A model generated the notes under the pieces. The model did no database searches. It was not told where the DNA came from and saw nothing but the letters and a program-made list of their open reading frames with translations. A stretch of 61,730 nt of DNA, taken from contig CALRBA010000003.1 of NCBI GenBank assembly GCA_943353835.1, positions 1 to 61,730 of the forward strand, read 5' to 3'. The stretch comes from Candidatus Nomurabacteria bacterium. GTDB taxonomy: Bacteria > Patescibacteriota > Minisyncoccia > Phycocordibacterales > Phycocordibacteraceae. A program made the position numbers and the translations under genes. Position 1 is the first letter of the stretch. Every line of letters starts with the position of its first letter. Positions 1-28,678 of this stretch are shown one piece after another.

Positions 1-2015
1 GCTTTCTTTTTGCCTTTCTCAGAAACAAGGTCAGACCTTTGGGAACTTGCATTAAGGTCTGACCTTGTTTCTGGTGGCACTTCAGGGAGCGCCATCTCCA
101 CATACGGCCCGAAGCGTCCCGTCTTTATATAAACAGCGTCGCCGGTCTCGGGGTGTACACCGATTGGCTCGTCACTTTTCAGCTCCGCACCGTCTTCCAT
201 GCGTGCGCCGAGACAATCAGGATACTTCTTACAGCTCATGAAGACACCTCCGCGTCCGAGCTTATTCTCCATCGCACTACCACAGAGCGGGCATGGAAAT
301 TCTTTGGGAGCATCGCCGAGCGACGTCGCCTTCGGAAGTTTATCTTTCGCTCGCACAGCCTTTTCAAATGGTCCATAAAATTCGGTTAATGTCTCTTTAT
401 ATCCGCGTTCTCCGCGAGCAATCTCGTCAAGTTTGTCCTCCATCTCCGCGGTGAATGTGTCGCTCACATACTCTGGAAAATTTTCTTCCAGCCAGCCCGA
501 GACGACCATGCCTGTGGCCGTCGGCTTCAGCGCTCTCGCAAGTTTTTCTACATATCCGCGGTCTTGGATGGTCTTCATAATAGAGGCGTAGGTTGATGGA
601 CGTCCAATTCCTCTTTTTTCCAATTCTTTAATCAATCCTGCTTCGGTATAACGATTTGGCGGTTCGGTCTGTTTCTCTTCAGCACCAAGCGAGAGGAGGT
701 CGAGCGGGTCGCCACTGGCAAGCTTCGGGAGCTCTACATCCTCGCCTCGCGACTTCGTATCCAGCGCGAGCCAGCCAGCGAAGAGGACGCGGGAGCCGTT
801 GGCAGTAAACAAGGGGATTTCTTTATTTGCTTTCGCGACGACGTTCGTGCGCATAATCTTCGCAGGAGACATCTGAGAGGCGAGGGCGCGTATACGGATA
901 AGTTCGTAGAGTTGCACTTCGTCCGGAGTAGAACCCGCGCGTTTATGAGAAGGGTCAGTGGGGCGGACGGCTTCGTGCGCCTCCTGTGCGTTCTTACTCG
1001 TCGTCTTATACGCGCGCACCTGCAGATACTCTTTACCAAACTCTTTTTCTACAGCACTCGCTATCTTCGCGACCGCTTCGGTGCCGAGATTCACCGAATC
1101 GGTGCGCATATAGGTGATATGTCCCGCCTCATATAATTTTTGTGCTGCGCGCATTGTGCGTGAAGGTGCGAATCCGAGTCTCGTTGAAGCAGTCTGCTGA
1201 AGCGTTGAAGTCGTAAATGGAGGACGAGGATTACGGTCTTCGGCTCTTTCTGTAACATCGCCGACTTTCCATACGGCACTCCTGCCGGCTTGTACAATTC
1301 TTTCAGCTTCTTCATATGTGGCAGGCTGTTCTGTGCAGGTTGTAGACAAGGTTAAACCTTGAGAATTCTGACCAAGGTTTAACCTTGTCTTAAAGAGTGC
1401 AGAGAGGACGAAATAGGTGACGGGTATAAAAGCTTTAATTTCTCGCTCGCGTTCCGCCAGGATGCGAAGAGCAGGAGATTGTACACGCCCAGCTGATAAA
1501 CCGTAGCGCACTTTTTTCCAAATCAAACCGGACAAGTCATAACCGACGATGCGGTCTAATACGCGCCGCGCTTCTTGCGCACGGCGCAAATTCTCGTCTA
1601 TGTTTCTCGGATGCGCTATTGCATCTTTTATCGCATCCTCTGTTATCTCGTGGTAAACAACACGTTTAATCGGTTTGGTTTTTATTTTTTGAGATTTGGA
1701 ATTTCCGAGTTCATCTCTGATGATCTCGGCGATGTGCCACGCAATAGCCTCTCCCTCACGGTCTGGGTCGGTCGCGAGATATATCTCGTCGGCCTTCTCT
1801 ACAGAGCGCTGTATCTTCTCTATCACTTCGCGTTTATCAGCGGAAATAACGTAGTGCGGAATAAACCCGCCTTCAATATCCACCGCGTCTTTATTACTCT
1901 TTGGTAAGTCGCGCACATGCCCGACAGAAGCAATGACATCGTAGTCTTTACCTAAATATTTCCCAATCGTGCGTGCCTTTGTAGGGGACTCTACAATGAG
2001 TAATCGTTTCATCAT
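1..2015 (-). CDS. topA: DNA topoisomerase I (type IA), runs off the left window edge
   Basis: Manual minus-strand translation (absent from the ORF track because no stop falls in the window): MMKRLLIVESPTKARTIGKYLG (Toprim), GLSAGRVQSPA, KLYEAGHITYMRTDS (catalytic Tyr), C-terminal CPLC zinc ribbon and GRFGPYV repeat. Confidence 0.96.
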   Translation of the reverse strand, partial: MMKRLLIVESPTKARTIGKYLGKDYDVIASVGHVRDLPKSNKDAVDIEGGFIPHYVISADKREVIEKIQRSVEKADEIYLATDPDREGEAIAWHIAEIIRDELGNSKSQKIKTKPIKRVVYHEITEDAIKDAIAHPRNIDENLRRAQEARRVLDRIVGYDLSGLIWKKVRYGLSAGRVQSPALRILAEREREIKAFIPVTYFVLSALFKTRLNLGQNSQGLTLSTTCTEQPATYEEAERIVQAGRSAVWKVGDVTERAEDRNPRPPFTTSTLQQTASTRLGFAPSRTMRAAQKLYEAGHITYMRTDSVNLGTEAVAKIASAVEKEFGKEYLQVRAYKTTSKNAQEAHEAVRPTDPSHKRAGSTPDEVQLYELIRIRALASQMSPAKIMRTNVVAKANKEIPLFTANGSRVLFAGWLALDTKSRGEDVELPKLASGDPLDLLSLGAEEKQTEPPNRYTEAGLIKELEKRGIGRPSTYASIMKTIQDRGYVEKLARALKPTATGMVVSGWLEENFPEYVSDTFTAEMEDKLDEIARGERGYKETLTEFYGPFEKAVRAKDKLPKATSLGDAPKEFPCPLCGSAMENKLGRGGVFMSCKKYPDCLGARMEDGAELKSDEPIGVHPETGDAVYIKTGRFGPYVEMALPEVPPETRSDLNASSQRSDLVSEKGKKK
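20..73. repeat. AAGGT-N3-ACCTT palindromic element, copy 1, in frame in topA
   Basis: cagaaacaaggtcagacctt-N14-aaggtctgaccttgtttctg; 20-bp arms; 54 nt. Confidence 0.9.
1344..1390. repeat. AAGGT-N3-ACCTT palindromic element, copy 2, in frame in topA
   Basis: agacaaggttaaaccttg-N11-caaggtttaaccttgtct; encodes TRLNLGQNSQGLTLS. Confidence 0.9.
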
Positions 2016-25983: not shown

Positions 25984-26946
25984 ATGCAAACCGTTGTTGG
26001 GGTACTGCGAGGCGGGCCTAGTCGCGAGCACGAGGTATCGCTTAAGTCCGGCGCCGCTATCCTTGCGAATCTGTCCGAGGAGCGTTACACCGCGCGCGAC
26101 ATTTATATAGATAGAAATGGAGTCTGGCATGACCGAGGCAGAGCAACTTCGCCTGAACGTATATTGCGTCAGACCGACGTTGTTCTAATTGGTCTGCACG
26201 GTGAATATGGTGAGGATGGAGAAGTACAAAAGCTTCTTGAGCGTTTCGGCGTCCCATATGCCGGCGCCGACTCATTTGGTTCCTATCTCGCGATGCATAA
26301 AATTATGTCCAAAGCGCGGGCGAAGGAGGAAGGACTACTCACACCAGAATCGCGTTTCATTGAACGCGTCGAAGACAGCGAGACTGTGGCAAGTGAGGTG
26401 GTCCGTGCCTTTCATCAGCCGGTCGTGGTGAAGCCAGTCGGTTGGGGCTCCTCGGTCGGTGTTTCTATAGTGGGAGGATACGCACCGGTGCTCTCTGCAG
26501 TTAAAAAACTTTTCTCTGATGGCGCGCCGAGCGTCATTGTTGAAGAATATATTCGTGGAAAGGAGGCGACAGTTGGAGTGGTGGAAGGACTGCGTGGCGA
26601 GAAATTCTACTCGCTACCGCCAGTTGAAATCATTCCTCCTAACGGCGATTTTTTTAATTACACAAATAAGTATGATGGGACTACCCAGGAGATTGTCCCG
26701 GGCAATTTCTCCCGCGTCGTTTCTGAAGAGCTCCAGAGGGTGACGAAGGTAATGCATCGTGCGCTTGGCCTGCGCCACTACTCGCGGAGCGATTTTATTG
26801 TTGCGCCAAAGGGTATTTATTATTTGGAGACCAATACATTACCTGGTCTCACGCATGAATCGCTCCTGCCGAAGTCCCTCGCCGCAGTCGGCGTCAGCTT
26901 CCGCGACTTCCTCACGCATCTGGTCAATCTCGCGCTCTCGCGCTAA
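25984..26946 (+). CDS. ddl: D-alanine--D-alanine ligase
   Basis: GGPSREHEVSLKSG, LHGEYGEDG, VVKP..GSSVG, YLETNTLPG. Confidence 0.96.
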   Translation: MQTVVGVLRGGPSREHEVSLKSGAAILANLSEERYTARDIYIDRNGVWHDRGRATSPERILRQTDVVLIGLHGEYGEDGEVQKLLERFGVPYAGADSFGSYLAMHKIMSKARAKEEGLLTPESRFIERVEDSETVASEVVRAFHQPVVVKPVGWGSSVGVSIVGGYAPVLSAVKKLFSDGAPSVIVEEYIRGKEATVGVVEGLRGEKFYSLPPVEIIPPNGDFFNYTNKYDGTTQEIVPGNFSRVVSEELQRVTKVMHRALGLRHYSRSDFIVAPKGIYYLETNTLPGLTHESLLPKSLAAVGVSFRDFLTHLVNLALSR

Positions 26947-26956
26947 AGTATTCAGA

Positions 26957-27044
26957 CGGGCCCATATGTAGGCATATGAGCCCTCGTTCGGAGAGAAAGA
27001 ATAATTGAAGACACTTATTATTTCTTCCTCTCTTCGGGCCCATA
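26957..27044 (+). mobile_element. 78-bp hairpin element flanked by a direct repeat of the tRNA-Ala(TGC) 5' end
   Basis: CGGGCCCATA at 26957-26966 and 27035-27044; internal stem-loop with TGAAGACAC loop. Confidence 0.65.
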
Positions 27045-27108
27045 GCTCAATTGGTAGAGCGCCTCATTTGCAATGAGGAGGTAGCCGGTTCGAAACCGGC
27101 TGGGTCCA
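27036..27108 (+). tRNA. tRNA-Ala(TGC)
   Basis: Complete cloverleaf, CCTCA-TTTGCAA-TGAGG, G3:U70. Confidence 0.96.
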
Positions 27109-27133
27109 CTCATATGATATTCTTCTTTAGTTC

Positions 27134-27207
27134 GCGCTCTTAGCTCAGTTGGTTAGAGCGTCCGCCTCACACGCGGAAGGTCGCAAGTTCGAATCTTGCA
27201 GAGCGCA
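27134..27207 (+). tRNA. tRNA-Val(CAC)
   Basis: Acceptor GCGCTCT/AGAGCGC, TCCGC-CTCACAC-GCGGA. Confidence 0.96.
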
Positions 27208-27226
27208 CCCGGGAGATGCCCTGTGT

Positions 27227-27297
27227 CGGGCCGGAGTATGCCGGTAGTACGCACGATTCGGGTTCGTGCAGACCGGGTTCGATTCCCGGCGGCCCGA
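27227..27297 (+). tRNA. tRNA-Pro(CGG) with atypical D region
   Basis: Acceptor CGGGCCG/CGGCCCG, CACGA-TTCGGGT-TCGTG, CCGGG-TTCGATT-CCCGG. Confidence 0.88.
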
Positions 27298-27330
27298 CTG
27301 AATATCGTTATGTTAAACTCGTCCAAGCTT

Positions 27331-27482
27331 GGGCCATTAGCTCATCTGGTAAGCCCTTCAGGCTTTCTCCGTCGTCGCTCCGCTTAAATAAATGTGAAGA
27401 CGCATTTATTCAGCTACGCTTCTAGTAGTAGAGAGCGTCATTCGCATTGACGAGGTAAGCGGTTCAAGTCCGCTATGGTCCA
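27331..27482 (+). tRNA. tRNA-Ala(CGC) interrupted by a 79-nt D-loop insertion (27352-27430)
   Basis: Joining 27331-27351 to 27431-27482 gives a 73-nt tRNA collinear with tRNA-Ala(TGC); CGTCA-TTCGCAT-TGACG; G3:U70. Confidence 0.85.
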
Positions 27483-27531
27483 CAAAATCAAAAACTCGTC
27501 CGCAGTCTGGCGGACGAGTTTTTGATTTTGT
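27482..27531. terminator. Long hairpin, probable bidirectional terminator
   Basis: 22-bp perfect stem acaaaatcaaaaactcgtccgc/gcggacgagtttttgattttgt between the tRNA cluster and the convergent SWIB gene. Confidence 0.8.
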
Positions 27532-27543
27532 ATAATGAACTCT

Positions 27544-27795
27544 TTATTTCATATGTGCCGAGACGAGCTTCGTCATCTCAAACATCGTGACCTCGCCCTT
27601 ACCTCCGAAGATAGCCTTCAGCTTCTCATCCGCGAGGATATTCCTCTTGTTTGCCGGATTCTGAAGGTTGTTCTTCTTAATGTATACCCAAAGCTGCTTA
27701 ACCACCTCCGTTCTCGGCATCGGACTCTTCCCGACGACTGCCTCCAGTTCAGGAGACAGATTGAGCGGTTTTGATAAAGCTGAATTTATTGCCAT
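27544..27795 (-). CDS. Stand-alone SWIB/MDM2 domain protein
   Basis: LSPELEAVVG..PRTEVVKQLWVYIKKNNLQNP.NKRNILADEKLKAIF..VTMFEM. Confidence 0.93.
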   Translation of the reverse strand: MAINSALSKPLNLSPELEAVVGKSPMPRTEVVKQLWVYIKKNNLQNPANKRNILADEKLKAIFGGKGEVTMFEMTKLVSAHMK

Positions 27796-27884
27796 AATGA
27801 ATGTAATTGTATTAATTCTAAGTGACCCGTTCATTATACCACTATATTGGTATTGCAACACCGTCCGATGGTATAATGTAGAGT

Positions 27885-28115
27885 ATGTCATTCCAGAGTT
27901 TTCTTCTTAATCAATATGCCAAGTGGAAGATGAAGGACGTTCCCAAGGAACAGCGCGAGCAGATGACCGCGCTCGTAACTAAAGACCCTCAGCTTTTTAA
28001 AAAAATCGGCGAGGAGATTGAACGGCGTAAGAAAGGCGGAGAGAGCGAGATTAAGGCGTCTATGGAGGTGATGAAGAAATATCGTACGGAACTGTCTGCA
28101 CTTATGCAAAAATAA
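27885..28115 (+). CDS. Small conserved hypothetical protein
   Basis: Basic helical ORF; TGGTATAAT ends 7 nt before the ATG. Confidence 0.8.
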   Translation: MSFQSFLLNQYAKWKMKDVPKEQREQMTALVTKDPQLFKKIGEEIERRKKGGESEIKASMEVMKKYRTELSALMQK

Positions 28116-28120
28116 ATAAT

Positions 28121-28678
28121 ATGGATACACTCGTTTCACTTCTCGTATTCTTTCAGGCGCTCGGCGCGTCTGTGGGCGCGTTACTATCTATCTGGAGCGA
28201 GTTCGTATATATCCGAGCCATGCGCGACGGACGGATTGATGTCGCAGAAACAGCTCATATGAAGATAATGGCGAATGGTCTTCGTTTCGGCATGACTATT
28301 ATGCTACTCGCTTCTCTCGGTCTCGTGATTGTCTCTTATGTATTACGCGATACTCTTCAGCCGACGCTCTCCGCCGGTTACTGGATATTCATCATGTTCG
28401 CACTTCTGATTATCAGTATTTCCTGGGCACTCTCACGAAGACGAATCTCCTTTGCTCTTGGTTCAGCAACGGTCTTTACCGCATGGTGGTTTCTCGCGTA
28501 TCTCACTCTCGGTTGGCTCTATCCGCTCTCATTCGGCTCCGCTGTCGCATTTCTAATCGTCGCTACTGCAGTCATATATGCCATCCTTCATTACGCCAGA
28601 ATGCTCGCCGTGCATACTCGCATCAACTCTCGACAGAGTGACGATGCGTCAGATGGTGCATCGCTTGCGCAGAAGTAG
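28121..28678 (+). CDS. Hypothetical integral membrane protein (about 5 TM)
   Basis: Hydrophobic ORF in operon context. Confidence 0.8.
   Translation: MDTLVSLLVFFQALGASVGALLSIWSEFVYIRAMRDGRIDVAETAHMKIMANGLRFGMTIMLLASLGLVIVSYVLRDTLQPTLSAGYWIFIMFALLIISISWALSRRRISFALGSATVFTAWWFLAYLTLGWLYPLSFGSAVAFLIVATAVIYAILHYARMLAVHTRINSRQSDDASDGASLAQK

Follow-up and report, generated by a model that had tools for sequence, protein, structure and literature searches.

A structured repeat in the D-loop of a tRNA-Ala(CGC) gene of a Kaiserbacteria-like CPR bacterium is probably a recent mobile insertion

Introduction

How does a tRNA gene of an ultra-small CPR bacterium come to carry a 79-nt structured segment in its D-loop, and what does this do to the gene? 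The question is raised by a locus in the genome of a Candidatus Nomurabacteria bacterium (GCA_943353835.1; G000 below), within a window of 61,730 nucleotides, positions 1 to 61,730 of contig CALRBA010000003.1, which is the whole stretch of DNA that was analyzed. A first-pass annotation of this DNA had offered two readings of the segment, a new small bacterial tRNA intron or a miniature mobile element aimed at tRNAs. The introns of bacterial tRNAs are typically group I introns, usually 200 nt or more in length and placed in the anticodon loop. Archaeal bulge-helix-bulge (BHB) tRNA introns occur at non-canonical positions, and they include the transposing introns of Thermoproteales. CPR genomes are otherwise thought to be nearly free of transposable elements.

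Results

When positions 27352-27430 were removed in a script, ARAGORN called the joined sequence as a 73-nt tRNA-Ala(cgc). This tRNA has the G3:U70 pair, and its acceptor, anticodon, and T arms are intact; its single defect is a G10/A25 mismatch, just as the first-pass annotation had described it. The mismatch is due to an A at 27434, tRNA position 25, which breaks the G10-C25 pair. The insert sits in the D-loop, between tRNA positions 21 and 22. Upstream of it, the 5′ part of the gene spans the acceptor 5′ strand, the D-stem 5′ strand, and the D-loop through GGTA, and has the same sequence as the corresponding part of the intact tRNA of genome G036. GTA is present at both junctions, as had been noted before, so the insert boundary is ambiguous by 3 bases and can be shifted to the left by up to that number.

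Standard tRNA finders do overlook this gene, as had been predicted. In the cluster, Ala(TGC), Val(CAC), and Pro(CGG) are all that ARAGORN, or Rfam at gathering score, detects (Table 1). ARAGORN finds no tRNA in the undeleted 27331-27482, and RF00005 at a loose threshold recovers only 27420-27474, at 21 bits versus a cut-off of 29. A Logan contig from X1, the likely source sample, is identical to the window over 27054-28300; it supports the assembly and is not independent of it. The 152 nt of 27331-27482 fold at -51.1 kcal/mol (z = -3.69), well below shuffled controls.

Two further observations concern the surroundings of the gene. Past the tRNA cluster, at 27484-27531, there is a long near-perfect hairpin between A and T runs, and beyond it a convergent small gene at about 27540-27800; the hairpin looks like a two-way terminator. 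In a minor X1 contig, 27298 is followed by 26 other letters and then by 27227, which means that some of the cells or a co-occurring strain carry tRNA-Pro(CGG) as a tandem duplicate.

Table 1. Features of the interrupted gene and its neighborhood (positions in the window) and Y1 genes elsewhere in the genome (positions on contig C5)
Feature	Position	Strand	Basis or remark
Putative distant relative of the element	26958..27044	+	R1 26963-27051, 13.8 bits
tRNA-Ala(TGC)	27036-27109	+	ARAGORN and Rfam; intact
tRNA-Val(CAC)	27134-27209	+	ARAGORN and Rfam; intact
tRNA-Pro(CGG)	27227-27298	+	ARAGORN and Rfam; intact
5′ part of tRNA-Ala(CGC)	27331..27351	+	tRNA positions 1-21; ARAGORN on joined sequence
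Insert, one copy of a genus-wide structured repeat	27352..27430	+	79 nt; R1 and empty site
P1 hairpin, 5′ end of insert	27352..27364	+	Sequence
P2 5′ strand, CTCC	27367..27370	+	Row L039 of alignment A3
P3 hairpin	27387..27410	+	Sequence
P2 3′ strand, then terminal TA	27425..27430	+	Element end is GTA
3′ part of tRNA-Ala(CGC)	27431..27482	+	tRNA positions 22-73
RAYT-like Y1 HUH gene, 225 aa	G000 C5:36367-37044	+	Own palindromes on both sides
RAYT-like Y1 HUH gene, 224 aa	G000 C5:5092-5766	-	Own palindrome upstream

We built a covariance model, R1, from a six-copy seed (A2), and took the anatomy of the element from 37 family copies aligned to it (alignment A3). On the insert region, R1 matches 27340-27437 at 81.7 bits. 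The element is about 80-100 nt long (matches, 80-120 nt) and consists of a short 5′ hairpin, P1, whose length varies among family copies, and then a long imperfect hairpin. In the latter, a 4-6-bp helix (P2) closes a conserved pyrimidine-rich internal region, and a 10-12-bp hairpin (P3) is capped by a G-NRGA-C loop. The loop is seen in 27 of the 37 copies as aligned and in 3 more, G000 included, where it is misaligned. The G000 insert contains P1, P2, and P3, and both of the hairpins described in the first pass are there in the sequence. Its P2 pairs the CTCC strand with GTAG at 27425-27428, with one C-U mismatch, and its P3 has 8 Watson-Crick pairs, a T-G wobble, a G-C closing pair, and an AAGA loop. 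GTA directly precedes the element in 31 of the 37 copies (ATA in 2, other triplets in 4) and ends it in 36, and the base that follows is always a purine (G in 31, A in 6).

The structure is backed by paired changes. Over 28 proposed pairs in the 37 copies, 88.7% of cells hold standard pairs versus 71.0% in shuffles, and 179 double-sided changes were observed versus 54 in shuffles; as the model used for the alignment already contained P1 and P3, the figures for these two are biased in favor of the structure. It did not contain P2 or the internal pairs. Helix 1 is paired in 99.4% of cells, with double-sided changes in 5/5 pairs, and helix 2 in 87.1%, with double-sided changes in 4/5; the P3 stems covary in the family. 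Control alignments with partners slid by 1-3 columns gave 31-45% pairing. Family members are non-coding, multi-copy, and under 300 bp, and no Rfam family matches the element in a search with the G000 copy and four other loci. The layout of stem, internal loop, and variable stem had suggested an integron attC-like reading. We dropped it: attC elements have conserved GTT-type core boxes, and these are absent from the consensus.

Contigs from X3, X4, and X6, DNA metagenomes from three other studies, pass directly from 27348 to 27428 and leave out exactly 79 bases (one joining contig each). The joint has 3 ambiguous letters, GTA, and 60 bases on its shorter side, and the contigs run through tRNA-Val and tRNA-Pro before they reach it. 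The flanks of these empty-site strains are about 97.5% identical to those of G000 (20-21 differences in 781 bases, 18 in 790). The likely source run, X1, contains no such joint. In other species, 14/14 intact tRNA-Ala(CGC) orthologues are uninterrupted. An empty site in so close a strain points to a recent and precise DNA event, and together with the uninterrupted orthologues it makes a recent insertion of mobile DNA in the G000 lineage the parsimonious reading of these sequences. The filled/empty comparison leaves room for a target duplication of at most 3 bases, or for none. TA stands at both junctions in nearly all copies of the family, and a 2-3-bp duplication is indistinguishable from an element end that mimics the target.

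The first-pass annotation had called for a survey of CPR tRNAs for homologous inserts, and R1 found many copies across the genus. With a threshold of E<=0.01, 78 of the 151 genus genomes contain the element (391 matches, 0 to 23 per genome); outside the genus it was found in 2 of 150 other genomes of the order. G000 has a single R1 match, the tRNA-Ala(CGC) insert, and BLAST of the insert against G000 returned only the insert itself, with no second copy that could have been the donor. In most of the 61 relatives searched by BLAST, the tRNA-Ala(CGC) of this Ala/Val/Pro cluster is uninterrupted, and look-alikes of the insert occur in other genomes, adjoining other tRNAs. An exact 20-base motif of the element was found in relatives named Candidatus Kaiserbacteria or Paceibacterota. 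An exact 24-base stretch of P3 had 0 matches in JGI metagenome contigs, and an exact 19-mer of the element right end matched 0 viral contigs; a degenerate 18-mer matched 12 viral contigs, none of which is matched by the family model. The family appears to be undescribed, and what our literature search returned, in partial texts, described no comparable element, whether from CPR bacteria or from the D-loops of bacterial tRNAs.

A whole-genome census was made in G067 (600,217 bases, 98% complete). The model found 24 copies, 22 of them at E<=0.01, and a motif scan added 1 further copy, 25 in total. Only 3 of the 24 are tRNA-associated; the other 21 are intergenic. With ORFs called crudely, about 11 of the 25 start no more than 55 nt from the stop of a co-oriented upstream ORF or overlap it, about 5 more are co-oriented and farther away, and about 6 are not co-oriented. 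Among the 48 tRNAs called by ARAGORN in G067, every one of the 20 amino acids has an intact tRNA. Tandem copies of the element, arranged head to tail, were seen at L033, L053, and L054 and at G067 C1:95189-95415; in these, the GTAGTA end of one copy runs directly into the AGCC start of the next. At one orthologous site, with the same downstream gene (G067 C1:175760-175862 and L056 1501-1601), the two copies have conserved internal regions and entirely different P3 stems, and this divergence points to recurrent insertion or copy replacement.

How does the family behave in tRNA genes? Across the loci seen, 28 copies lie in D-loops, 28/28 in sense orientation, and insertion between GGTA and G at the same D-loop spot recurs in copies of Gln, Asn, Ile, Ala, and Pro tRNAs. 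All except one (27/28) sit in broken tRNA duplicates beside a usable tRNA with the same anticodon. A complete intact partner with that anticodon is found in the locus for 24 of the 28, the tRNA-Pro(CGG) partner in L002 included; for 2 the partner runs off the contig end, and for 1, in G010, the partner tRNA-Asn(GTT) bears a group I intron. The one copy without a partner is that in the tRNA-Ala(CGC) of G000. Interrupted forms of Gln, Asn, Ala, and Pro tRNAs keep positions 1-21 and have a short remnant after the element. In four genomes, interrupted forms of tRNA-Ile(GAT) keep the 3′ part with no matching 5′ acceptor strand, each downstream of an intact tRNA-Ile.

Some of these pseudo-copies have features of their own. 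Two Ile(GAT) pseudo-copies, at about 1300-1420 (-) in L037 and 1600-1720 (+) in L049, have another insert besides, conserved and about 54 bases long, in the T-arm region. In Gln pseudo-copies L027, L029, L030, and L038, the tRNA remnant downstream of the element is reverse-complementary to the 5′ fragment that precedes it, and such units can form an outer hairpin of about 19 bp; one idea for the origin of this remnant is template switching in a quasi-palindrome. In G010 (C22), the group I intron lies at 138-373 of L021, on the minus strand, in the anticodon loop of tRNA-Asn(GTT), with an RF00028 score of 77.3 bits, and the tRNA that bears it is directly downstream of the Asn pseudo-copy with the D-loop element.

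The G000 tRNA-Ala(CGC) gene is the only one of its kind in that genome. Its joined form differs from the intact tRNA-Ala(CGC) of G036 at 1 of 73 positions, C25->A, and C25 is kept in 14/14 intact orthologues that align in register (a fifteenth, L026, at 72 nt, is out of register and was left out). Changes among the intact orthologues are compensatory or in loops. The exons are thus undamaged except at position 25, which is expected for a recent event and also fits a working gene. An exact 25-base stretch over the 3′ junction with A25 had 0 matches in JGI metagenome contigs, and the A25 mismatch may predate the insertion. Since GCG codons can be read through wobble by tRNA-Ala(UGC), the cell could do without the CGC isoacceptor. 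From the sequences, the gene is probably inactivated or impaired, and tolerated as that of a dispensable isoacceptor. G000 also lacks tRNA-Ala(GGC) and tRNA-Pro(GGG), both of which relatives keep in the same cluster, and the interruption fits this loss of other redundant isoacceptors.

Other entries in the tRNA sets of G000 and G067 may be recorded here. A tRNA-Arg(GCG) is present in both (G000 C1:21852-21924; G067 C4:5152-5226); bacteria usually have tRNA-Arg with ACG rather than GCG. Both also have a tRNA-Ile(TAT) (G000 C8:27245-27319; G067 C1:162067-162141) and only two tRNA-Met(CAT) genes each.

The first-pass annotation had also tied the insert to an element about 300 bp upstream by loop motif and length. 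The resemblance in the loop holds, as the upstream sequence has a hairpin with a G-AAGA-C loop like the second hairpin of the insert; the kinship itself is weakly supported, with E 0.0037 for the R1 match in an 801-base search. The 69 bases at 26967-27035 lie directly before the intact tRNA-Ala(TGC), between two copies of the first 9 bases of that tRNA (26958-26966 and 27036-27044), and by their sequence they are probably a distant relative of the family. The same layout occurs before tRNA-Ala(GGC) in G023 and before tRNA-Met and tRNA-Asp in G067. The upstream relative is present in the empty-site strains, since their contigs cover 26300-27080.

We looked for an enzyme that could move the element. 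Y1_Tnp matches occur in 81 of the 151 genus genomes. Both Y1 and the element are found in 56 genomes, the element only in 22, Y1 only in 25, and neither in 48, an odds ratio of 4.9 uncorrected for kinship. G000 encodes two Y1 proteins (225 and 224 aa). They match PF01797 above the cut-off, and their best match is NF047646, the model for the REP-associated Y1 tyrosine transposase (RAYT), at 36.7 and 33.3 bits, below the cut-off of 80. Among nine RAYT-like genes in G000, G023, and G118, 7 have the same palindrome on both sides, and the orthologous genes L125 and L129 have it upstream only. None of the palindromes of these nine genes resembles the element. A stretch of about 35 bases of neighboring sequence is directly repeated on either side of the gene at C5:36367-37044. 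In G023, 0 of 8 listed element places are within 5 kb of a Y1 match, and G067, with its 25 copies, has no Y1 match. We therefore rejected Y1_Tnp as an established partner, given the different flanking palindromes, the 22 element genomes without a Y1 match, and the presence in G000 of two Y1 genes but one copy of the element.

Other enzymes were sought in five genomes, the highest-copy ones included. Cas12f1-like_TNB/TnpB (PF07282) and DDE_3 (PF13358) had matches in 0/5, G067 included. RVT_1 (PF00078) was found in 3/5, G067 and G116 not among them. Y2_Tnp (PF04986) had matches in 0/5, an uninformative result, as the control was also without a match anywhere. A motif scan of the whole G067 genome for solo right ends returned only complete small copies and no related autonomous element. 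Terminal inverted repeats were not evident by eye when the 5′ AGCC end was compared with the reverse complement of the GGTAGTA end in 61 copies.

Several results bear on splicing. The first-pass annotation had proposed folding the precursor for BHB-like motifs and looking for an RtcB ligase or a splicing nuclease in the genome, and neither search was positive. In one minimum-free-energy fold of 27331-27482, no BHB-like motif is found at the junctions; the 5′ junction falls inside the stem of P1, and two 3-nt bulges separated by 4 bp are not seen. Neither PF01139 (RtcB) nor PF01974 (EndA) has a match in G000, which is 98.5% complete, and the same profiles did match in positive controls (PF01974 in 4/14 genomes, PF01139 in 10/14). 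RF00028 has no match in the window at gathering score, nor in 26900-27560 at E<=10.

Discussion

We consider it fairly probable, taking the account as a whole, that a small non-coding mobile repeat recently and precisely entered the D-loop of the sole tRNA-Ala(CGC) gene of this Kaiserbacteria-like genome. The inserted repeat would inactivate or impair the tRNA, and wobble reading of GCG by tRNA-Ala(UGC) would make the loss tolerable. The repeat may move as folded single-stranded DNA recognized by an enzyme acting in trans, a weakly supported step, and the enzyme could possibly be a RAYT-like Y1 HUH protein of the genus. Of the two readings that the locus had first received, it is the miniature mobile element aimed at tRNAs that the multi-copy family, the empty site, and the recurrent D-loop insertion bear out. 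The new small intron did not fare well: nearly all of the D-loop copies sit in broken duplicates, 21 of the 24 G067 copies are outside tRNAs, and neither EndA nor RtcB was found in G000. The 79-nt insert is most likely not a spliced intron.

Could the tRNA nevertheless be made? In one version, the element is mobile as DNA and is removed from the precursor RNA, on its own or through some activity of the host, to yield a normal tRNA-Ala(CGC). One can point to exons that are intact bar position 25, to the compact and strongly structured module, to the uniform sense orientation in tRNAs, and to a genuine tRNA intron in the genus, that of the G010 tRNA-Asn(GTT). But the strongest argument against it is that essential tRNAs hit by the element always keep or regain an uninterrupted or group-I-bearing copy, and the 27 duplicates that lack an acceptor strand or a 3′ half would be needless if the element were spliced. 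Most copies in G067 lie outside tRNAs, and tandem arrays occur; neither EndA nor RtcB was found in G000, and the predicted fold has no bulge-helix-bulge; 79 nt is far below the size of a group I intron, and RF00028 is unmatched; and the only unique exon change breaks a stem. We regard removal from the RNA as very unlikely. Hardly better are the chances that the 152-nt RNA is processed and charged as it is, with the hairpins of the insert projecting from the D-loop. The 20a/20b region of the D-loop varies naturally in length among tRNAs, and the insertion lies next to it, between position 21 and the D-stem 3′ strand; the hairpins are local, which would bring the insert ends close together, and the acceptor, anticodon, and T arms are undamaged, as is the alanine identity pair G3:U70. 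Against such tolerance, the essential tRNAs that bear the element are always accompanied by an uninterrupted or intron-bearing partner, the G10/A25 mismatch further weakens the D-stem, and we know of no natural bacterial tRNA with a D-loop insert of this size. That the element represents an undescribed type of mobile DNA directed at tRNA loops in CPR bacteria, and is moreover neutralized at the RNA level, by excision or by structural tolerance in the variable part of the D-loop, with tRNA-Ala(CGC) still functional, seems to us a long shot. If true, it would mean a bacterial, non-group-I, intron-like element of the D-loop without counterpart among known splicing systems.

A different view makes the repeat an RNA module useful to the host, a REP-like 3′-UTR hairpin that stabilizes or terminates messages, with the tRNA-Ala copy a by-product of its spread. 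The G067 copies at or beyond co-oriented ORF stops and a structure maintained by compensatory changes speak for it; REPs likewise lie mostly downstream of coding regions and are thought to be RNA elements (PMC3733652). It accounts poorly for a distribution of 0 to 23 copies in only 78 of the 151 genomes, for P3 sequences that are completely different at orthologous sites, or for the G067 copies that are not co-oriented with a neighboring ORF, and it leaves the insertion into a tRNA unexplained. We think it unlikely, if less so than a functional interrupted tRNA. Recent insertion of a mobile repeat remains our preferred reading.

With which known mobile systems does the element belong? REPs, as described in PMC3733652, are palindromic, 20-40 bp long, mostly downstream of coding regions, and occasionally inside genes. 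Our element appears to share with REP/RAYT systems its nature as a multi-copy, non-coding palindromic repeat, an unpaired GTA(G)-like tag at the junction, a tendency, seen in G067, to lie downstream of genes, and an occasional place inside them, and the genus encodes RAYT-like Y1 proteins. Unlike REPs, it is 80-100 nt long, 2-4 times their size, with two distinct hairpins; its tag is 3′ of the long hairpin, on the other side than in REPs; it targets tRNA D-loops; and the Y1 genes are flanked by different palindromes. A REP/RAYT-like single-strand mechanism is the best lead that we have, and a tentative one.

The remaining systems resemble the element in part. Bacterial MITE-like repeats (Correia/NEMIS, ERIC, RUP, Rickettsia palindromic elements) have much in common with it: like the element, they are short, folded, non-autonomous, and patchy in distribution, and the host puts up with their insertion at the ends of genes and now and then within a gene or an RNA gene. 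The element, however, has no visible terminal inverted repeats and no related full-length element, and its target lies between RTA and R, with a duplication of at most 2-3 bases. IS200/IS605-derived palindrome-associated elements have subterminal hairpins at each end and an end sequence that resembles the target, and they insert 3′ of a short specific sequence with no clear target duplication. The element likewise has subterminal hairpins and a target-like end, and inserts after a short sequence without an evident duplication; its left and right hairpins differ, however, no TnpB was found in the five genomes, and a classical TnpA of 140-170 aa is present in only some genus genomes. Elements that integrate at tRNAs leave partial tRNA repeats and regenerate an intact tRNA on one side. 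A duplicated tRNA part likewise flanks the inserted DNA in family copies, with an intact tRNA restored on one side, but the unit is about 80-250 bp, there is no integrase, and the duplication is usually of the 5′ part; the G000 copy is a simple insertion with no duplicated tRNA part.

Likeness to introns is more superficial. Group I introns also interrupt tRNA genes, but the one in G010 is about 236 nt long, sits in the anticodon loop, and is recognized by RF00028, whereas the insert, 79 nt long and in the D-loop, has no match in Rfam. Like archaeal BHB introns, the element is a short insert at a non-anticodon position with related copies in different tRNAs; unlike them, it shows no BHB in the fold, no EndA or RtcB was found alongside it in G000, and the majority of copies sit outside tRNAs or in defunct tRNA duplicates.

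To this family the locus adds a case in which the tRNA gene hit is otherwise intact and has no partner, and for which a matching empty site is known. It is a clean filled/empty pair, which fixes the exact boundaries of the element in ultra-small CPR bacteria and implies that the element is, or recently was, mobile. As no recognizable transposase partner was found, a new mobilization route is possible. The family leaves broken tRNA duplicates as debris, which confuses tRNA annotation. The tRNA sets of CPR genomes can therefore be undercounted, and isoacceptors that seem to be missing may be interrupted genes.
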